From NCBI GenBank assembly GCA_019322805.1, contig JAHWIC010000003.1, positions 964 through 64,963 on the forward strand: a stretch of DNA of 64,000 nt. Direction: 5' to 3'. The translations under genes and the position numbers were made by a program. The notes under the pieces are model-generated. The model saw only the letters and a program-made list of their open reading frames with translations. It searched no databases and was not told the DNA's origin. Each line of letters begins with the position of its first letter. Within the stretch, counting starts at the first letter, position 1. This document shows, one piece after another, positions 1,791-58,747 of this stretch. The DNA comes from Candidatus Woesearchaeota archaeon. Lineage in GTDB: Archaea > Nanobdellota > Nanobdellia > Woesearchaeales > JAHWIC01.

Positions 1791-2999
1791 ATGAAGAAAG
1801 ATGGAAAGTATTTGTTTACTTCTGAGTCTGTTACAGAAGGACACCCTGACAAAGTCTGCGACCAGATATCTGACGGAATCCTGGATGCTATATACAAGGA
1901 TGATCCAAATGCGCGAGTTGCAGTTGAGGCTTTAACAACAACAGGCCTTGTTATTGTGTCTGGCGAAGTTACAACAAAATCTTATGTTGATGTACAGAAG
2001 ATTGTAAGAAATACAATAAAGAAGATTGGCTATACAAAGGCAGAGTATGGCTTTAATTCTGAGGATGTTGGTGTGTTAAGTTCAATCCATGAGCAAAGCC
2101 CTGATATTTCTTTAGGTGTAACACAGACTGAGTCACATGAGCAGGGTGCTGGTGACCAGGGAATGATGTTTGGTTATGCAACTAATGAAACTAAAGAGCT
2201 TATGCCTTTGCCTATATTGCTTGCGCATAAATTATGCATGAAATTAGCAGAAGTCAGGAAGAATAAAACCTTAAAGTATCTAAGGCCTGATGGAAAAAGC
2301 CAGGTTACTGTTGAGTATCACGATGGAACCCCAAAAAAAGTAACAACTGTTGTTATTGCAGCACAGCATGACCCTGATGCTACAGAAGACCAAGTTAAGA
2401 AAGATGTTACCGAGAAAGTAATCAAGCCAGTTTGTGGTAAATGGCTAACAGAAGATACAGTCATCCATGTTAATTCAACTGGAAGGTTTGTGATTGGCGG
2501 TCCTCCAGGAGACACAGGCTTGACAGGAAGAAAGATAATTGTTGATACTTATGGCGGCCATGGCTCTCATGGCGGCGGCTGTTTCTCTGGAAAAGACCCA
2601 AGCAAGGTAGATAGATCAGCATCTTATATGTGCAGGTATATAGCGAAGAACATTGTTGCAGCAGGCCTCGCTGATAAATGCGAGGTGCAGCTTGCGTATT
2701 CCATTGGAGTTGCAAAACCAGTTTCTGTTCTGGTGCACTGTTTTGGAACAAGCAGGATACCAGAAGATAAGATTGCAGAGCTTGTTGAGAATCATTTCCC
2801 ATTAAAGCCATCAGAGATTATTAACCACCTTGATTTGAGGAGACCGATCTACCAGAAAACAGCTGCTTACGGCCACTTTGGCAGAGATGACCCAGACTTT
2901 ACCTGGGAGAAAACAGACAAGGCTGAGCTGCTGAAAGAAGAAGCTGGTAAACTGCACAAGCCTGAGAAGACTGGGAAGGAAGTTCCGCTGGATGAGTAG
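1791..2999 (+). CDS. metK: S-adenosylmethionine synthetase, bacterial/eukaryal MetK type
   Basis: [29 protein letters not shown] and [21 protein letters not shown] motifs. The ATG at 1791 is preceded by the GGTGG SD-like sequence, so the ORF-track start at 1782 is less likely. Confidence 0.95.
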
Positions 3000-3023
3000 A
3001 TTTTTTATTTTTTCAATTAACTT

Positions 3024-3031
3024 TTTAAATA
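3024..3031 (+). promoter_or_regulatory. TATA-like box upstream of the sigma-70-like gene
   Basis: TTTAAATA begins 29 nt upstream of the ATG at 3053. This is the same spacing seen at many other genes in the window. Confidence 0.4.
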
Positions 3032-3052
3032 TAATTCTATATCTTCTTTTGT

Positions 3053-4720
3053 ATGAGGGAGCCAGCACTTAAATTAGATTATCCAGATTTGAACCCGATA
3101 GAGGGCAATAGTGTAAATCAAATTATTGAAGGGGCTAGAAATGATGGCGCTATTTCTTATGGGTTACTTAATGACAGATTACCTTCAAGCATTACTAGGC
3201 CAGGACAGATTGATGCGGTTCTTTCAAGGCTTGATGAAGAAGGCATTGATTTAGTAACCGAGATGGAGCTTAGAAAGAGGCGTTCAAGGCCTGATCCCGA
3301 GAGAATCATGGTTGATAAAGAGTCAAATCTATCAGATGCTGTGAGGATATATCTCGAACAGATGGGTGGCTATCGGCTGCTTACCCAAGATGAAGAAATA
3401 AGGTTGTCAAAAGGATTAGAAATATACTATAAGCACTTTGTCAGGGCTATCCTCCGGTCTTATGAAGGGCTCAAGGCACTTAACGAACATTACGAGAGAG
3501 TTATAGATCACTATATGGGTAGCGAATCTAGAAAATCACGAGAGCCAGAGGCTATAACCAAAATAAAGGAATACAATGAAGAAGTTAGAAAGAAACTTGA
3601 GTTGATCAGAGAAATTAATGCAGAGCTTTGTTTAAGGAGAACATCAGAGAGGAGAAAAAGAGAACTCAGGGAACTTAGAAGACAAATTATAAGAAAAGAA
3701 GCAGATTCACTTGAGGAATCGTTCTATTTGGATTATCAACCTGCCAGAGTCAAGGATTGGGTTTTGACTTCAGTGATGGAAAAATATGCTGAAGCTACTA
3801 CAAAGGTTGGGCATTATGAAGGTAGGTTAAAAGAAGAAAGGAGAACAAGAAATGATCCTAAGGAAGTCTCAAGGCTTGAAACAAGGATCGACAGATTAAA
3901 AAGACAGTATTCAGATGAATTTGGTGAGGATTGGAAGTATGTACAGATAAGACATGCATTGCTACAAAAAAGATCCAAAGCTACTGCAGCATTAGTGAAG
4001 AGACTTACGCAGGGAAACCTTCGGCTTGTTGTAAGTATTGCAAAAAAATATAGGAATAGGGGATTACCTTTCCTTGATTTGATCCAGGAAGGAAATGGCG
4101 GTTTAATGAAAGCTATTTGGAAATATGAATATAGGAGGGGCTATAAATTTTCAACATATGCAACATGGTGGATAAAGCAAGCTATAAGCAGAGCTATAAT
4201 TAATAATGCAAGAACAATAAGGATACCTGCACATATGATTGAAACGATGTCGCGCTTTCGCAAGACATCAAGGGACCTTATGCAAAGGATTGGGCATGAG
4301 CCTACAGTAGATGAGCTTGCTAAAGAGGCAGAACTTCCAATATCTGAAGTGCAGCGTCTCATGCAAATATCCAAGTACCCTGTAAGCCTTGATAGGCCTA
4401 TAGGAGATTCAAAAGATACATACTTTGGAGACTTTATTGAAGATAAAGATGTTGCAAGCCCTATAGTTGTAGCCTCTCACTACCAATTAGCAAATAAGAT
4501 CAATGAGGTATTAGATACGCTCACATACAGAGAAAGAGAAGTAGTAAAAATGAGATTTGGAGTTGGTTATGACCAAGACTTTACTTTAGACGCAGTTGGA
4601 AGAAGATTTAAGGTTACAAGAGAAAGGATAAGGCAGATTGTGGCAAAAGCTATGAGGAAATTGCAGCATCCAGTTAGGTCAAGAGAACTGGAAGGTTTCT
4701 TAGACGAAAGAGTTTCTTAG
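3053..4720 (+). CDS. rpoD: RpoD-like (group 1 type) sigma-70 factor
   Basis: Region 1.1-like N-terminus. Region 1.2: DAVRIYLEQMGGYRLLTQDEE. Region 2: NLRLVVSIAKKYRNRGLPFLDLIQEGNGGLMKAIWKYEYRRGYKFSTYATWWIKQAISRAI. Region 3 is present. Region 4.2: RFKVTRERIRQIVAKAMRKLQHP. Confidence 0.9.
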   Translation: MREPALKLDYPDLNPIEGNSVNQIIEGARNDGAISYGLLNDRLPSSITRPGQIDAVLSRLDEEGIDLVTEMELRKRRSRPDPERIMVDKESNLSDAVRIYLEQMGGYRLLTQDEEIRLSKGLEIYYKHFVRAILRSYEGLKALNEHYERVIDHYMGSESRKSREPEAITKIKEYNEEVRKKLELIREINAELCLRRTSERRKRELRELRRQIIRKEADSLEESFYLDYQPARVKDWVLTSVMEKYAEATTKVGHYEGRLKEERRTRNDPKEVSRLETRIDRLKRQYSDEFGEDWKYVQIRHALLQKRSKATAALVKRLTQGNLRLVVSIAKKYRNRGLPFLDLIQEGNGGLMKAIWKYEYRRGYKFSTYATWWIKQAISRAIINNARTIRIPAHMIETMSRFRKTSRDLMQRIGHEPTVDELAKEAELPISEVQRLMQISKYPVSLDRPIGDSKDTYFGDFIEDKDVASPIVVASHYQLANKINEVLDTLTYREREVVKMRFGVGYDQDFTLDAVGRRFKVTRERIRQIVAKAMRKLQHPVRSRELEGFLDERVS

Positions 4721-6874: not shown

Positions 6875-7015
6875 AATCATTAGAAAAATCATCAATAGGA
6901 AAAAAATCAATAAACGAAAAAAATAATTCTGATTTTTGCTTTATTCCTTTACTTAAAGCAAATCAGAATTATTTTTTTAATGATATTTCTTTTTAATGAT
7001 TTAATTTTTCTATTG
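6875..7015 (+). repeat. R-element copy R1 (minimal form: A/T-rich arms plus a single hairpin)
   Basis: AATCAATAAAC-type words, then the hairpin AATTCTGATTTTTGC ... GCAAATCAGAATT (6925-6970), then an inverted A/T-rich right arm. Confidence 0.85.
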
Positions 7016-9255: not shown

Positions 9256-9261
9256 AACAAC

Positions 9262-9360
9262 AAAATTCCGAAGGAATTTTGTGTCGCGAGAAACGCATAG
9301 CGTTTCTGTGTGCCAGAAATGCGGAGCATTTCTGAGCAGCTCAAAAAACCGAAGGTTTTT
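9262..9360 (+). other. Array of four consecutive triloop hairpins
   Basis: AAAATTCC-gaa-GGAATTTT (9262-9280). AGAAACGC-ata-GCGTTTCT (9289-9307). CAGAAATGC-gga-GCATTTCTG (9314-9334). AAAAACC-gaa-GGTTTTT (9344-9360). Confidence 0.85.
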
Positions 9361-9364
9361 CGAC

Positions 9365-9922
9365 ATGGAACGGACAAAGGAAGAAACAGTAGTTGTACTG
9401 GACTTTTTGCCGAATGGCTACCCATTTGACACAAGGCCTATCTACCAGAAAACTGCGATAGCGCAAGCTATAGGCAAGGAGCACTTTGTTTTACTGGAAC
9501 TAGCCCCTAAGAAGGATATCCATTTACAGCCTTATGAGGAGGTTTATATCGGAGAGGGCAAGCGTGACAAGGTGCATCACATAGTTGGAAAGCTTCCTAT
9601 AGATAAACTTACTGCAACAGCAAAGTCTGAGCTGGAATATGTCATAAAGGATATTGTAAATAAAGACGAAAAAAGGTTTGTTGACTTTTTCAATAAGGCA
9701 CAGCCCTTAAGCACAAGAATGCACCAGATAGAGCTTTTGCCAGGCGTTGGAAAGAAGCATATGTGGCAGATAATAGATGCAAGAAAGGAAAAGCAGTTTG
9801 AGAGTTTTAAGGACATAAAGAAGCGCGTTAAGCTTATGCCTGATCCGGAGAAGGCAATCATAAGAAGGATACTTCTGGAACTTCAAGGCAAAGAGAAACA
9901 CAGGTTGTTTGTTGACGTATAA
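9365..9922 (+). CDS. DUF655 (HhH-containing) protein
   Basis: MERTKEETVVVLDFLPNGYP ... LLPGVGKKHMWQIIDAR. The start is set at the ATG at 9365, because the upstream part of the ORF-track frame runs through the hairpin array. Confidence 0.8.
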   Translation: MERTKEETVVVLDFLPNGYPFDTRPIYQKTAIAQAIGKEHFVLLELAPKKDIHLQPYEEVYIGEGKRDKVHHIVGKLPIDKLTATAKSELEYVIKDIVNKDEKRFVDFFNKAQPLSTRMHQIELLPGVGKKHMWQIIDARKEKQFESFKDIKKRVKLMPDPEKAIIRRILLELQGKEKHRLFVDV

Positions 9923-10975: not shown

Positions 10976-11089
10976 ATCCTCCCCATTAGTGCACAAGGAG
11001 AACGCCATAAATTGCTGACGCAATTTAATTTCACAGTGTCCCTCCCCTAACAGGCTATGCACAACAGAACATACAACTAAATATGCAAG
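10976..11089 (+). repeat. B-element copy 1 (77-nt conserved block plus tail ending in ATGCAAG)
   Basis: 10976-11052 matches 45106-45182 with 2 mismatches. It has an internal hairpin AAATTGC-tgac-GCAATTT (11009-11026). The tail CAACTAAAT-ATGCAAG provides the ATG of the next ORF. Confidence 0.9.
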
Positions 11090-11463
11090 GTGTTTTGATG
11101 GACGATGATATAAAGTTTAGATGTCCTTACTGCGGGAAATTAACCAGGCCTCATGAGAGGTATTGTGATTTCTGTGAGCAGGACTTATCAAAGGTCAGGG
11201 ATAAGTTAGAGGCAGAAGGAAGAGAAAAAGCCTGCTTTATAGCAACTGCAGCTTATGGGACTCCTTTTGCAAGAGAGATTGATGTTTTGAGGGACTGGAG
11301 GGATAACAGTTTGAATACAAATTTTTTTGGTTCTTTGTTTGTTAAGGTTTATTATAAAGTGAGCCCTCCTATTGCGAGATTTATAGCAAAGAGGAAAAAA
11401 TTAAGGAAGTTGGTTAGGATTATCTTAAAACCAATAATCAGTATCATTAGAAAAAATCAATAG
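11083..11463 (+). CDS. Zinc-ribbon protein with CFIATAAYG...LRDWRD motif domain
   Basis: CPYCG...CDFC zinc ribbon, then CFIATAAYGTPFAREIDVLRDWRD and a hydrophobic tail. The last codons and the stop lie inside R-element R2. Confidence 0.6.
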   Translation: MQGVLMDDDIKFRCPYCGKLTRPHERYCDFCEQDLSKVRDKLEAEGREKACFIATAAYGTPFAREIDVLRDWRDNSLNTNFFGSLFVKVYYKVSPPIARFIAKRKKLRKLVRIILKPIISIIRKNQ

Positions 11464-11629
11464 AAAAAAATAAATCTGATTTTTGCCTTAAGTCTACTAT
11501 AAAGCAAAAATCATCTGCAGTGTTTCTTAAAGAACCAAACTAAGATGAAAATTCCTTTATACCAGTTGTGAAAGGAATTTTCAGAATTATTTTTTTAATG
11601 AATTTCTCTATTGATTTTTTTTATTGATT
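11443..11629 (+). repeat. R-element copy R2 (canonical short form with four-way-junction core 11475-11585)
   Basis: TCTGA|TTTTTGC-17nt-GCAAAAA|TCATCT-26nt-AGATGA|AAAATTCCTTT-12nt-AAAGGAATTTT|TCAGA, flanked by imperfect inverted AATCAATAG/AAAAA words. Confidence 0.9.
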
Positions 11630-15099: not shown

Positions 15100-15279
15100 T
15101 TGGTAGAGTTCGAAAATAATGATTAAATCTATGCTATGAAAATAGCAAAAGATGAATCATTAAAAATTTAATGACAAATCAATGCTGGAAACAGCAAAGA
15201 CGAATCATTAAAAAAATGATTAAATCTATGTTGGAAACAACAAAAGATGAATCATAAAAAAAACAAAAAACTCTACCAA
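15100..15279 (+). other. Structured domain: 11-bp closing helix enclosing three tandem GAAA-tetraloop hairpins (candidate ncRNA)
   Basis: TTGGTAGAGTT (15100-15110) pairs with AACTCTACCAA (15269-15279). The hairpins at 15119-15160, 15171-15208 and 15216-15255 have apical stems TGCTAT/ATAGCA, TGCTG/CAGCA and TGTTG/CAACA. A separate 10-bp hairpin lies at 15065-15087. Confidence 0.7.
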
Positions 15280-21910: not shown

Positions 21911-22696
21911 ATGGAATTAGATGAAGCAAAGATTTCAAAAGCAATTATAGATAGCTATCATAAAAAACTTACAAAAATCCTAGATGCAGATGTAGCAATT
22001 GCAGGAGCAGGTCCTGCTGGCCTGACAGCAGCCTATTATCTTGCTAAGAAAGGAATAAAGGTAGTTGTTTTCGAGAAGAAGCTGTCCCCTGGAGGAGGGA
22101 TGTGGGGCGGCGGAATGCTGTTTAATGAGATTGTTGTGCAGGAAGACGGCAAAAAGATGCTGGACGAGTTTGGAATAAAATATGAAAAATATTCTGAACA
22201 TTACTATACTGCAGATTCAGTAGAAACAATATCAACAATCTGCTCAAAAGCTGTGAAAGCAGGAGCTTTGCTCTTTAATTGCATCTCTGTAGAGGATGTG
22301 ATCTTAAAGCAGGGCAAGATTCATGGCTTAGTTATTAACTGGACACCAGTTGATATGGCTAAGCTGCATGTAGACCCGCTTGCAATTAAAAGCAAATATG
22401 TTATAGAAGCAACAGGGCATCCTTTGGAGGTTCTTACAGTGATAGAGAAGAAGTGCGGCGGAAAGATGTTTACTGAAACCGGTAAGATAATCTGGGAGAA
22501 ATCAATGGACGCTACTCAGGGTGAGAAAGACTGCGTTGAGTATACTAAAGAGGTTTTTCCTAATGTTTTTGTCGCAGGGATGGCAGCAAATGCAGCTTTT
22601 GGAAGGCCAAGGATGGGTCCTATTTTTGGCGGAATGCTGCTTTCCGGGAAAAAGGTTGCTGAAATGTTGATAGAAAGATTGAAGGGAAAGGAATAA
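21911..22696 (+). CDS. thi4: Thiazole synthase Thi4 (archaeal/eukaryal type)
   Basis: [22 protein letters not shown] ... [17 protein letters not shown] is present at the position of the yeast active-site Cys region. Confidence 0.9.
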
Positions 22697-23080
22697 TCAA
22701 TTCAAAAATTCAATAAAAAAATCATCATTAGGAGAATAATCAATAGAAGAAAAATAAACGGAAATCAGGATTTCCTAGTTGCGCTCGCTTCGCTCGGCAA
22801 CAATCTGATTTTTGCTTTCTTCTCTTCGTTAAGGCAAAAATCGTCTTAAGTGGTTCTTTAAGAAACAGAATAAGACGAAAATTCCTTTATCGCGATGAAG
22901 AAAGGAATTTTCAGATTGTGTATAAATTATGAAATAATTTACTACACTAGAAAAATGTGTTAGCATTTTTCGTTGATTAATTGTTATTAAATAAAACTAA
23001 AGGGCATCAACCGAAACAAACGCACAACTGATTGTGATGGATGAAATTTAACCTAATGATAAATTAAATTGATAGTTAAA
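22695..23080 (+). repeat. R-element copy R3 (long form; core 22804-22915)
   Basis: The same module order as R2, plus three additions: a 5' hairpin module GGAAATC/GATTTCC, an extra hairpin GAAAAATG/CATTTTTC, and a right-hand module ending at the thiE ATG. Confidence 0.9.
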
Positions 23081-29282: not shown

Positions 29283-29672
29283 ATGCAGTACAGCAAAAAG
29301 GTCGTAGAACACTTTAGGAATCCGCACAACATGGGTGAGATAAAGAACCCAGATGGTATAGGTAAGGTAGGCAATCCTATATGCGGCGATGTCATGTGGA
29401 TTTATATAAAGGTGGGAAAGAATAAAAAAGGACAAGAGATAGTCAAAGACATTAAGTTCAAAACCTTTGGCTGTGCAGCTGCAATTGCAACCTCTTCTAT
29501 GACTACTGATTTAGCTAAAGGGAAGACTCTAGATGAAGCAATGAAGCTGACAAGGGATGATGTAAAGAATGCTCTTGAAGGTTTGCCTCCTATCAAAATC
29601 CATTGCAGCAACTTAGCAGCAGATGGTTTGCATAAGGCAATTGAAGATTACAGAAAGAAATCAAAGAAATAA
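29283..29672 (+). CDS. iscU: Fe-S cluster scaffold IscU/NifU-like
   Basis: GNPICGD, FKTFGCAAAIA and HCSNLA motifs (three cluster-ligand cysteines). Confidence 0.9.
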   Translation: MQYSKKVVEHFRNPHNMGEIKNPDGIGKVGNPICGDVMWIYIKVGKNKKGQEIVKDIKFKTFGCAAAIATSSMTTDLAKGKTLDEAMKLTRDDVKNALEGLPPIKIHCSNLAADGLHKAIEDYRKKSKK

Positions 29673-30022
29673 TCCAATAAAAGAAATCATTTTAAAAAAT
29701 CAATAAAAACAAAAAATAAATCTGATTTTTGCCTTAAGTCTACTATAAAGCAAAAATCATCCGCTTCTGTTTCTTAAGAAACAGAACAAGATGAAAATTT
29801 AGTAAACGCAACTATTTTATGAAAGATTGCGTTTACTATTTAGTAAGCGAAACTATTGATTATATAATTTCGCTTACTATAACCTTTACAGTGGTTCTGA
29901 AAGGAATTTTCGGAATGATTAATTGTTTTAAAATTTAAATTAAAGTGATGAAAAACAACCATATGCACGACTAATTGTAATAGATGAAATTTAACCTAGT
30001 GATAAAATAAATTGATGATAAA
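29671..30022 (+). repeat. R-element copy R4 (long form; core 29721-29914 with nested twin-hairpin insertion 29799-29882)
   Basis: The same modules as R2. Arm 3 is interrupted by TAGTAAACGCAA...TTGCGTTTACTA and TAGTAAGCGAAA...TTTCGCTTACTA. The right-hand module ends at the ATG at 30023. Confidence 0.9.
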
Positions 30023-45077: not shown

Positions 45078-45105
45078 TGGCGCTCAAAGAAAAATTTTAT
45101 CTTTG

Positions 45106-45229
45106 ATCCTCCCCACTAGTGCACAAGGAGAACGCCATAAATTGCTGACGCAATTTAATTTCACAGTGCCCCTCCCCTAACAAATCTGTTAGAGGTACGC
45201 AACTAAATTAGAGGAATGGAAAATGCAAG
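45106..45229 (+). repeat. B-element copy 2
   Basis: 45106-45182 matches 10976-11052 with 2 mismatches. The tail is GCAACTAAAT, then a 14-nt insert, then ATGCAAG. Confidence 0.9.
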
Positions 45230-45359
45230 CATACTCACTAGCGTTCGTAGCTTACATTTTTTAACATAAGAAAAGGTGAAGTAAAAAATGCAAGCATACT
45301 CACTAGCGTTCGTAGCTTACATTTTTTAACATAAGAAAAGGTGAAGTAAAAAATGCAAG
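45223..45359 (+). repeat. Perfect 65-bp tandem duplication (2 full copies plus first 7 nt of a third, which is the atpE start)
   Basis: 45223-45287 is identical to 45288-45352. Each copy carries ATGCAAGC..., a 13-codon ORF (MQAYSLAFVAYIF) and the AAAAGGTGAAGTAAAAA SD region. The third ATGCAAG at 45353 starts atpE. Confidence 0.95.
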
Positions 45360-47353: not shown

Positions 47354-47665
47354 AAATAAATCAATAAGAAAGAATCAATGGGAAAAATCAATAAACACAA
47401 AAAAATAATCTGATTTTTGCTTTATAATCCACATTAAGGCAAAAATCATCATCCGTCTTTCCTTTAAGTATACATTAAAGGAAGGGAAGAGGATGAAAAT
47501 TCCTTGAGCGTGGTTGTGAAAGGAATTTTCAGAATGATTAGTTGCCATTAAATGATTAATTTGATATGATAAAAACAAACAAATGCGCAACAAATTGTGC
47601 ATGCATATCAACACCCAATGATCAAAATCAATGATGATAATTAAAAACAAATCAATGGTGATATT
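47354..47665 (+). repeat. R-element copy R5 (long form; core 47409-47533) between atpF and atpA
   Basis: It fills the whole 312-nt atpF-atpA spacer. The right-hand module contains the hairpin GCGCAA-caaa-TTGTGC (47585-47600) and ends with AATGGTGATATT-ATG. Confidence 0.9.
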
Positions 47666-52179: not shown

Positions 52180-52188
52180 GAAAAAATA

Positions 52189-52337
52189 TCCCGCGGGAGG
52201 GACATCCGAACTTCTTTGTTTATCGAACCCCCAACACTACGGTAACAGCTGCCTTATTTTCATCCTTAGCAATTAGCTATGTCGATAAGTGGCTATATCA
52301 CCTACAGCCGTATGCTCTACCGTTGAGCTACCGCGGG
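52189..52337 (-). tRNA. tRNA-Tyr(GUA) with two intervening sequences (58 nt at 37/38; about 19 nt in the T-loop)
   Basis: Minus strand: CCCGCGG-UA-GCUC-AACGGUA-GAGC-A-UACGG-CUGUAG[58 nt]A-CCGUA-GUGUU-GGGGG-UUCGA[19 nt]GU-CCCUC-CCGCGGG-A. All stems pair. The loop CUGUAGA equals that of archaeal tRNA-Tyr, and C1-G72 is present. No CCA is encoded, and a T-run follows. Confidence 0.85.
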
Positions 52338-52386
52338 TTTAGTATTAAGAAAACAACATCTCTTTTTAAATTTATCTCTAAAATAT

Positions 52387-52758
52387 AAATCAATAAAAAC
52401 AATTATCATTAAAAAATCAATAAAAACAAAAAATAAACGGGAATCAAAGATTCCTTAGTAGGGCTTGTTTCACTCGGCAACAATCTGATTTTTGCCCCAA
52501 ATCAATTTGAAAAAATTCAATAAACGAAAAATAATAAATAGGATTTTTGCTTGATATTCAACAGTAAAGCAAAAATCATCTACAGTGTTTCTAAAGAACC
52601 AAACTAAGATGAAAATTCCTTGAGCGTGGTTGTGAAAGGAATTTTCGGATTTATTAATTGTTATTTAATAAAAATTAAAGAAATAAAAACACAACCAAGT
52701 GCGCAACTAATTGTGCATACATTCCAGCACCCAGTGATAATATCAATAAAACCCTTAA
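52387..52758 (+). repeat. R-element locus R6 (truncated copy interrupted by a complete copy; core 52540-52649)
   Basis: A 5' module as in R3 and TCTGATTTTTGC (52484-52495) are followed by a new left arm (AATCAATTTG...AATAAACGAAAAA) and then a full core and right-hand module. Confidence 0.9.
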
Positions 52759-58073: not shown

Positions 58074-58448
58074 TTGGATAAAATGGGCATATTTGTTGTT
58101 CAAAAACATAAAGCAACTCACTTGCACTGGGACTTTCGTTTAGAGCTTGATGGCGTCTTAAAATCTTGGGCTGTTCCGAAAGAGCCGCCTAAAGCAAAAG
58201 GAATAAAGAGGCTGGCTATAAAAGTAGAAGACCATGAGCTTGATTATGCAGGGTTTGAAGGAACAATCCCAGAAGGAATGTATGGTGCAGGAACTGTTAA
58301 GATCTGGGATAAAGGAACTTACGAATTAAAGGAAAAAGCCAAAGATAGGCTTGTTTTTGAGCTAAAAGGGAAAAAATTAAAAGGAAGTTATTGCTTAATA
58401 AGGTTTAAGAAGGCTGGAGCAAAGAATTGGTTACTATTCAAGATGTAA
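58074..58448 (+). CDS. LigD-type 3'-phosphoesterase domain protein
   Basis: FVVQKHKATHLHWDFRLELDGVLKSWAVPKEPP ... DYAGFEGTIPEGMYGAGTVKIWDKGTY. The start may be the ATG at 58083. Confidence 0.8.
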   Translation: MDKMGIFVVQKHKATHLHWDFRLELDGVLKSWAVPKEPPKAKGIKRLAIKVEDHELDYAGFEGTIPEGMYGAGTVKIWDKGTYELKEKAKDRLVFELKGKKLKGSYCLIRFKKAGAKNWLLFKM

Positions 58449-58747
58449 TCAATAAAAAGAAACCAATTTGGAAAAATCAATAAAAACAAAAAATCAATCC
58501 GATTTTTGCTTAATGCTCCACATTAAGGCAAAAATCGTTGAAAACCACCTTCGGTGGTTTTTAACGTGCTCAGAAATCATACCTAATGAAATGGATAAGT
58601 ATGATTTCCGACACATCCGCTGTCATTGCTAAAGGAAAAGAAGAGGATGAAAATTCCCTTATGGTGGTTGTGAAAGGAATTTTCAGATTAAATTTTTATT
58701 GTTTTTTTGTTTATTGATTTCAGATTAAGGAATGATGGTGATAAAAT
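58447..58747 (+). repeat. R-element copy R7 (short TIR-bounded form with expanded arm 2; core 58498-58687)
   Basis: Arm 2 carries CGTTGAAAACCACC-ttcg-GGTGGTTTTTAACG (a UUCG loop) and GAAATCATAC...GTATGATTTC. The right arm TTTTATTGTTTTTTTGTTTATTGATT is an inverted copy of the left words. Confidence 0.9.

Follow-up and report, generated by a model that had tools for sequence, protein, structure and literature searches.

REP/BIME sequences and the REPINs of Proteobacteria are mobilised by RAYT, a Y1 HUH transposase, and roles in termination and mRNA stability have been proposed for REP/BIME; to our knowledge, RAYT/REP systems are described from bacteria. REP/BIME and REPINs are extragenic, high-copy, imperfect palindromes arranged in mosaic units, which lie at gene 3′ ends and between the genes of operons and persist vertically at orthologous sites (bioRxiv 10.1101/2021.07.10.451892; PMC2817692; PMC3116915), and a REP is defined as a 20-40 nt imperfect palindrome with a conserved GTAG or CGTC tag (PMC3733652). 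The BOX (boxA-(boxB)n-boxC), RUP and SPRITE elements of Streptococcus pneumoniae are modular, with a variable number of modules and strong predicted structure; they insert into one another, form intergenic clusters and contain terminator-like parts (PMC10969869). The Correia elements of Neisseria, MITEs of ~100-200 bp present in >100 copies with inverted ends, stand immediately beside genes and may act as a source of promoters or terminators; they undergo processing as RNA hairpins (RNase III effects) and have been reported to invert in place (PMC10969869). Among archaea, MITEs (Sulfolobus SM1-4, Halobacterium, Desulfurococcus) and the PATEs of Haloquadratum are small, non-coding, multicopy intergenic elements (PMC10969869).

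Within the window (the whole stretch of woesearchaeal DNA analysed, 64 kb), a preliminary description had placed seven copies of a hairpin-built intergenic family, and inspection of the sequence confirmed all seven at the coordinates listed below, with the modules and the module order that it had given. The seven loci, all intergenic, all on the + strand and built of the same ordered modules, are 140-390 bp long and amount to ~2.05 kb in total, which is ~3% of the window and ~1/3 of its intergenic DNA. Their neighbours are ordinary housekeeping genes: three loci lie within operons (thi4/thiE, nifU/PP-loop ATPase and atpF/atpA), one follows a LigD phosphoesterase gene, one stands between convergent genes and two are found among minus-strand genes. 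The exact word TCTGATTTTTGC occurs six times in the window, always on the + strand and inside a locus, with a one-mismatch copy at 58498, and AAATTCC-N(1-30)-GGAATTT also occurs six times (0.02 expected), five of them inside the loci. A scan of the window with a profile HMM made from 27 copies returned exactly the seven loci, all on + and no others, with E-values of 1e-30 to 1e-17 at six of them and 1.5e-4 at the 6.9 kb copy, and no further copy was found in the next 9 kb of the source contig. The features of each locus are as follows, with P1 to P4 denoting the helices of the core.

6875..7015, + strand: short copy consisting of P1 and P2 only, with left ATCAWT/A-rich words, a single hairpin TCTGATTTTTGC...GCAAATCAGA and inverted right words; flanked by two minus-strand genes; HMM positions 3-41 matched with E = 1.5e-4 on + versus 0.024 on -, a weak orientation call because nothing beyond P1 and P2 is present.
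11443..11629, + strand: canonical short copy (CM 118.8 bits) with left words 11443-11474, core 11475-11585 and inverted right words with T-runs 11586-11629; P1 TCTGA 11475-79/TCAGA 11581-85, P2 TTTTTGC 11480-86/GCAAAAA 11504-10, P3 TCATCT 11511-16/AGATGA 11543-48, P4 AAATTCCTTT 11549-58/AAAGGAATTT 11571-80; between convergent genes, the stop codon of the upstream ORF (11461-63) lying inside a word.
22695..23080, + strand: long copy (125.9 bits) between thi4 and thiE, its left words overlapping the TAA stop; extra two-hairpin left module ~22758-22803; core 22804-22915, in which P3 is TCGTCTTA/TAAGACGA, fully compensated; right-hand module 22974-23069, ending at the downstream RBS/start.
29671..30022, + strand: long copy between nifU and the PP-loop ATPase gene; core 29721-29914, its P4 interrupted by an inserted double hairpin of 83 nt (~29800-29882); right-hand module 29916-30012.
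47354..47665, + strand: long copy between atpF and atpA; core 47409-47533; right-hand module 47535-47632; in its left flank, ATGGGAAAAAT is a degenerate version of ATGGTGATATTATGGG, the SD/start region found after the element.
52387..52758, + strand: composite locus, made up of an outer arm on the left, an additional left module and a truncated form of TCTGATTTTTGC (together 52387-52495) and then a complete inner copy (core 52539-52649, right-hand module 52651-52747); antisense to both neighbours, since the flanking intron-containing tRNA-like gene and DUF11 gene (3′ end) are both on the minus strand.
58447..58747, + strand: copy (76 bits) with core 58498-58687, its P3 arm much enlarged by extra hairpins, one of them with a C(UUCG)G tetraloop; right words inverted and bearing T-runs; the TAA that ends the LigD-PE gene is overlapped by the left word, and the right end adjoins the RBS of a 51-aa ORF.

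The composite 52.4 kb locus is read here as a nested or duplicated copy. A search for relatives of the DUF11 protein beside it found none, and an exact-protein look-up of the ORF adjoining the canonical copy returned no record.

To place the family among genomes, a specific pattern of 27 fixed bases was scanned over 185,579 GTDB species genomes. Exact matches were obtained at 28 loci in the Woesearchaeota MAG YT1_182, one in CP070655.1 and one in the small contig L142, two others (L184 and L185) being chance matches; the same scan of viral contigs (IMG/VR) gave 0 matches. YT1_182 is the closest genome in the GTDB set, syntenic with the window at ~80% nucleotide identity, and its loci hold at least 40 copies, every one of them intergenic, while diverged copies were recovered from the MAGs co121_309 (L123, L166) and NC_groundwater_1240 (L127, L137). 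CP070655.1 carries an Omnitrophota label, which is doubtful because its RtcB shares 91% identity with the YT1_182 protein and the flanks are conserved, indicating a close relative; since it contains masked N stretches, it may have more copies than the one counted. Copies of the family are confined to a small clade of Woesearchaeota-like genomes. Two looser hairpin patterns, also run against the GTDB genomes, were discarded because most of their matches were chance hairpins of unrelated bacteria. JGI contig Ga0309836_1000045 matches the window at 100% identity, and comparison at the strain level was uninformative, as L178, L256, L257 and L258 represent the same population (99.99-100% identity).

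The suggestion that the family had not been described before was borne out. Rfam gave no match at gathering thresholds across the whole window, permissive scans (E <= 10) of two loci yielded nothing above noise (E >= 0.016, with bit scores well short of the cut-offs), and searches of the literature on DPANN/Woesearchaeota repeats found nothing relevant and no description of the family. ARAGORN called 0 tRNA or tmRNA genes in the window; on this ground and because the arm sizes are unlike tRNA, a tRNA or tRNA-derived repeat was rejected. C/D-box, K-turn, BHB-intron and ribozyme candidates were also dropped, since neither the order nor the spacing of the boxes matches, the helices are complementary throughout and Rfam lends no support.

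The canonical core reads exactly as first reported, with the closing helix and three arms abutting and no unpaired base at the junction. The "seamless four-way junction" seen in it stands as complementarity, but it can branch-migrate and is one among several pairings of nearly equal energy, and when 43 copies were folded (core + 6 nt) it was the minimum-energy structure in 16 only, the usual prediction being three side-by-side hairpins. The bases next to the junction are alike at the start of each arm (..TGA|T.., ..A|TCA.., ..TGA|A.. and ..T|TCA..), so the junction can migrate 2-3 steps, and the form originally proposed and the migrated form are only 0.4 kcal/mol apart (-18.0 vs -17.6 kcal/mol). 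RNAalifold picks migrated hairpins without P1 or P3, and in the copies folded here the closing stem was formed once the long inverted A/T arms were included. The 187-nt canonical copy folds far better than its shuffles, with z = -7.6 for the + RNA, -7.3 for the - RNA and -7.3 for DNA. The four-way junction is a possible rather than a demonstrated fold of either single strand, be it DNA or RNA.

The module order P2-P3-P4 is fixed inside every copy, and the junction motif GA|T...A|TC is conserved across 44 copies. The imperfect inverted A/T-word arms claimed for the short copies were confirmed, whereas the long copies have a non-inverted right-hand module instead and show no crisp terminal inverted repeats. 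This right-hand module, which contains the CACAAnnnnTTGTG palindrome and ends at the downstream RBS, had rightly been singled out as conserved: it is a genuine family module that adjoins cores in relatives as well. Its position and orientation vary there, with the module inverted or on the other side in L123 and L159.

Covariation was assessed in alignments of 27 copies and of 44 clean CM-aligned copies. P4 and most of P2 are invariant in sequence, P4 even in distant relatives. Compensatory changes were found in P1 (TCCGA/TCGGA in L159, TAGGA/TCCTA in L166), in P2 (G-C in L110/L162; TTTTCAC/GTGAAAA and TTTTCG/CGAAAA in L166/L123) and at several pairs of P3 (e.g. UA 14 / CG 10 / UG 7), indicating that pairing is under constraint. 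There is no signal for one RNA strand, the wobble counts (G·U 50 vs A·C 38) favouring neither. Across copies the stems are fixed and the loops variable, which is the opposite of the pattern in most RNA families.

The left arms overlap the stop codon of the upstream gene in the window, as had been noticed, and this also holds in YT1_182. Among ~24 sense copies, the stop codon directly adjoins the first TCAAT (TAA|TCAAT or TGA|TCAAT) in 7 and lies within the first words in 6 more, with all three frames represented, the pattern that would arise if reading frames extended into the element and terminated at stop codons within it. At the other end, the right-hand words AATGAT and GTGAT/ATGAT stand 3-7 nt upstream of the next ATG and resemble the SD of the genome (GGTGAT). 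T-runs face outward on both sides of the element; a sigma-70/terminator scan, which is uninformative for an archaeon, did not flag the AT-rich stems.

Comparison of the atpF/atpA junction among relatives, the one junction on which the filled/empty evidence rests, showed that the hairpin unit is DNA inserted into formerly tight gene junctions. The junction is filled by 312 nt in the window and by 240 nt in YT1_182, and it is empty, with a spacer of 16-30 nt, in five relatives that are as close as YT1_182 or somewhat farther away (L251, L250, L252-254, L246/247 and L248/249); in the more distant L179-L183 atpF and atpA are nearly contiguous as well. The empty L251 and the filled YT1_182 are similarly close to the window (atpA nucleotide identity 82.2% vs 83.2%). 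Copy number also differs, with 28 loci in YT1_182 vs 1 in CP070655.1 despite their 91% identical RtcB. The proposal of a mobile hairpin element (REP/BIME/MITE-like), or of one that recombines, is supported by these filled and empty sites, by the composite 52.4 kb locus and by the difference in copy number. The filled atp sites have a degenerate Shine-Dalgarno region (ATGGAGGAT or ATGGGAAAAAT) at the left and an intact one (ATGGTGATATT) at the right, flanks that are compatible with, and hint at, duplication of ~10 bp of ATGGTGAT. A general target-site duplication signal was not detected when 39 copies were compared with mismatched-flank controls (scores 9.28 vs 9.21, p = 0.32). RtcB relatives were also considered as a source of empty sites; at <=74% identity their neighbours differ, and hence they provide no empty site for the rtcB locus.

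At the atpF/atpA junction of L177, a different, GC-rich hairpin element is flanked by a 31-bp duplication, and this second family has two copies in the window. The contig L255, which carries a close AtpF homologue, breaks off precisely at the stop codon of atpF, and the majority of the remaining close AtpF homologues are on contigs under ~1 kb; the seven-locus family may be a reason why these MAGs assemble in fragments.

Four window copies fall within syntenic DNA, and for each of them YT1_182 has a copy at the corresponding site, identically oriented. Compared module by module, the nearest neighbour is in most cases a copy from a non-orthologous site, frequently one in the other genome, with identities of up to 100% (over 34/34 nt and over 17/17 nt); for most modules the orthologue comes 12th to 39th among ~43, and an orthologous signal was seen in two modules only. 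A variant with an insert in P4 is common to the window and YT1_182 and occupies non-orthologous sites. The P2 loop, P3 arm, P4 loop and optional left and right modules have been re-assorted among copies and between genomes. Upstream of rtcB (L186, L159; YT1_182 vs CP070655.1), the flanks are orthologous, including the stop codon, the left words and a TATA-like box, and the core is in opposite orientation and differs in its module variants, showing that it can sit either way round between orthologous flanks. Stem conservation in place, at orthologous sites with differing loops, could reflect host function instead.

Taking the filled and empty sites together with the shuffled modules and the inverted core, we consider the loci to be probably lineage-specific, non-coding, non-autonomous modular palindromic intergenic repeats, that is, inserted DNA of a REP/BIME/BOX/Correia/MITE-like nature. 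They are best described as a previously undescribed archaeal family of the REP/BIME/BOX/MITE kind; since they fail both the strict definition of a MITE (a fixed duplication was not detected and the long copies show no clean TIRs) and that of a REP (no tag, and units that do not alternate), they were assigned to neither. Such repeats would be spread by a trans-acting enzyme with specificity for the hairpins or for the GA/TC motif close to the junction. Once copies are in place, their stems may be homogenised and their modules shuffled as they undergo gene conversion or recombine with one another via the invariant stems, and the core may be flipped by recombination across the flanking inverted arms or by re-insertion, with replacement in place as a further proposal. 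Their tolerance in a very compact genome would be explained by ends that are "insertion-neutral": the left TCAAT/A-rich words would offer a stop codon in every frame, the right AATGAT/GTGAT words are similar to a Shine-Dalgarno sequence, and the A/T-runs on both sides, which are reduced in the atp-operon copy of the window, may act as archaeal oligo-T terminators in either direction.

The uniform + orientation reported for the copies is true of the window (7/7; two-sided binomial p ~0.016, or 0.03 without the 6.9 kb copy, which is modest evidence) and does not extend to the family. Of 40 YT1_182 copies placed on contigs, 16 in tandem-gene contexts are sense and 9 antisense, and others lie between divergent or between convergent genes; the tandem contexts of the window hold 4 sense and 2 antisense copies. 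Neighbouring copies in YT1_182 share orientation in 15 of 21 pairs, and orientation switches repeatedly within single contigs, e.g. c32 (+ + + - + - -). Given this mixture, the 7/7 of the window is a local pattern, not a family rule, and transcription direction does not explain it, because two of the window copies are antisense to their neighbours.

The same data bear on a structured-RNA identity, in which the copies would be cis-acting mRNA elements (3′-end stabilisers, or signals for processing or termination between the genes of operons) or independent small RNAs and the four-way junction of the + strand would be the functional form. Such RNAs would fit the slight sense excess (16 to 9 in YT1_182, 4 to 2 in the window), but ~1/3 of the tandem-context copies are antisense and others stand between divergent or convergent genes. 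They would likewise fit the strong predicted folding of the canonical copy, but both strands fold equally well and the four-way junction is the MFE structure in no more than 16/43 copies. The compensatory changes in P1-P3 speak for paired RNA, and against it the wobble counts (G·U 50 vs A·C 38) show no strand asymmetry and it is the stems that are conserved and the loops that vary. Transcription is unavoidable for the copies within operons, T-runs come after hairpins, and a C(UUCG)G tetraloop hairpin is present in the 58.5 kb copy, all in line with an RNA; a core inverted at an orthologous site and an Rfam search empty even at E <= 10 are not. The RNA identity offered in the preliminary description has therefore gained no strand-specific support, and we regard it as unlikely.

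A mobilising enzyme of the IS200/IS605 type, a Y1 (RAYT-like) transposase, had been named as something to look for, and none was found in the ~350 kb sampled, in which the DNA of relatives was represented by 8-kb loci around copies. The ~350 kb contained no multi-copy ORF, and Pfam detected no transposase or recombinase among 30 ORFs. Between the inverted pair of copies in L192, 3.7 kb of DNA encodes housekeeping proteins and no transposase; an Orc1/Cdc6 gene adjoins one copy of this locus. If the element were moved as ssDNA by an HUH Y1 transposase, as an IS200/IS605-derived "PATE" or a REP/RAYT-like system whose orientation bias is linked to replication direction, one would understand why it is built of hairpins, why it shows no clean TIRs and no general TSD signal, and why its left end often comes directly after TAA/TGA. 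The 7/7 copies on one strand of a window whose cumulative GC skew rises monotonically, and the 15/21 co-oriented neighbouring pairs of YT1_182, point the same way, but the skew mostly tracks gene strand and so is not a gauge of replication direction, and the repeated switches within single contigs (c32) speak against a link of this sort. With the core inverted at an orthologous site, no GTAG/CGTC-type tag in the element and no Y1 or TnpB gene in the DNA sampled, transposition by this route seems quite improbable.

More speculatively, the core may be a Holliday-junction-like cassette, its helices meeting at GA|T...A|TC, that is moved and flipped by a structure-specific enzyme (a junction resolvase/recombinase, or an HUH protein acting on folded single strands), or alternatively it may represent a new orientation-independent class of structured RNA; we consider this a long shot, and the cassette, if true, would be a new mobility mode for non-coding DNA in DPANN archaea. 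Least probable of all is a host-encoded, non-mobile, vertically inherited regulatory cassette combining a bidirectional terminator/promoter with protein-binding palindromes, which would account for the 4/4 syntenic sites common to YT1_182, the invariant stems (P4 even in distant relatives), the T-runs on both outward sides and the right-hand module with its CACAAnnnnTTGTG palindrome ending at the downstream RBS, but is at odds with an atpF/atpA junction filled or empty among equally close relatives, with 28 loci vs 1 between close relatives, with composite/variant copies at non-orthologous sites in two genomes, with the occupation of every intergenic context in both orientations and with a copy mid atp operon, where a terminator would be harmful.

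DPANN genomes are very small and tightly packed, yet a single family of inserted repeats makes up ~1/3 of the intergenic DNA of the window. It has split the atp operon, carries its own stop codons and SD-like words, and persists while its modules shuffle. The repeat family alone opens no long-standing question; it does offer a tractable case for studying the survival of selfish or domesticated hairpin DNA in archaea with streamlined genomes.

Set against the known systems, the hairpin family is like REP/BIME in being extragenic, of high copy number, made of imperfect palindromes grouped in mosaic units, located at the 3′ ends of genes and between the genes of operons, and persistent at orthologous sites. 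Unlike REP, it has no GTAG/CGTC tag in 44 copies, and unlike REP/BIME its units are AT-rich and larger, with P2-P3-P4 in fixed order within a closing inverted repeat and without alternating orientation; the host, moreover, is an archaeon, and no RAYT was found in the DNA sampled. With BOX/RUP/SPRITE it shares modularity with a variable number of modules, strong predicted structure, a nested/composite copy, intergenic clustering and terminator-like parts, a likeness drawn from descriptions. It differs from BOX in its four-helix core and in an unrelated host, and for BOX we know of neither a four-helix core nor a mobilising agent. The Correia elements are similar in adjoining genes, in the inverted ends seen here in short copies and in inversion in place, seen here for the core; in contrast to their clean 26-bp TIRs and TA duplication, the arms of the present family are reiterated A/T words and no general duplication signal accompanies them. 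Archaeal MITEs and PATEs are derived from resident IS, with shared TIRs or IS200/IS605 ends, whereas no parent IS was seen in the DNA sampled, and we know of none described from DPANN/Woesearchaeota and of none with a modular hairpin core; the present family resembles them as small, non-coding, multicopy DNA in archaeal intergenic regions. Measured against MITEs in general, it departs from them in showing no fixed-length target-site duplication in the direct-repeat scan and agrees with them in small size, non-coding nature, multiple copies, intergenic position and sites that are filled in some relatives and empty in others.

Besides the modular hairpin family, the window and the loci from other genomes hold several further features. 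Five of them are as follows.

52183-52340, minus strand: tRNA-like gene, read by eye
9256-9365: mini-hairpin array, occupying the spacer between two genes
15110-15260: tandem hairpins within a 580-bp intergenic region
10976-11075 and 45100-45205, and 2860-3010 of the relative L177: second, GC-richer repeat family
45215-45352: 66-bp tandem duplication directly preceding a gene whose start is at 45353

The tRNA-like gene was detected by neither ARAGORN nor Rfam. Read by eye, it would be a tRNA-Tyr (GUA) with acceptor stems CCCGCGG...CCGCGGG, and its anticodon loop and its T-loop each appear to be interrupted by an intron. Intron-containing tRNA genes also directly adjoin family copies in the loci L150 and L123.

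The array at 9256-9365 consists of four perfect mini-hairpins in succession, with stems of 8-10 bp and 3-nt loops (GAA, ATA, GGA and GAA), and its stem 1 (AAAATTCC/GGAATTTT) is identical in sequence to P4 of the family core. At 15110-15260, three hairpins of ~48 bp (TAATGATTAAATCTATGCTAT...ATAGCAAAAGATGAATCATTA) lie in tandem, bordered by AATGATT/AATCATT words resembling those of the family arms. The second repeat family (TCCTCCCCAYTAGYGC...CCCTCCCC...ACAACTAA) shows 97% identity over 77 bp between its two window copies; a shorter member occupies the atpF|atpA junction of L177, where 31 bp covering the atpA RBS and start are duplicated on its two sides. The unit repeated at 45215-45352 comprises an RBS and a 13-codon mini-ORF (MQAYSLAFVAYIF*).

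At 58074-58448, a LigD 3′-phosphoesterase gene sits between an M50 peptidase gene and the family element; in the relative YT1_182 (L086), which lacks the phosphoesterase gene, the element comes immediately after that of the peptidase.

The closest AtpF homologues (P0002-P0007; 88-91%) are mostly on very short contigs of ~0.6-1 kb, and the stop codon of atpF is precisely where contig L255 terminates, which together suggest that assemblies break at the family repeat. The record labels of L159/L195 (CP070655.1), L123, L142 and L166 look wrong. RtcB of CP070655.1 ('Omnitrophota bin81 chromosome') is 91% identical to that of the Woesearchaeota YT1_182, with conserved flanks, and the 'Methanosarcinales' binchicken MAGs have proteins in common with the window at 48-78% identity. 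At 2151-3396 of the locus L192, an Orc1/Cdc6 gene is immediately followed by a family copy, whose orientation is opposite to that of the next copy 3.8 kb off; the surroundings of this gene may be an origin region.
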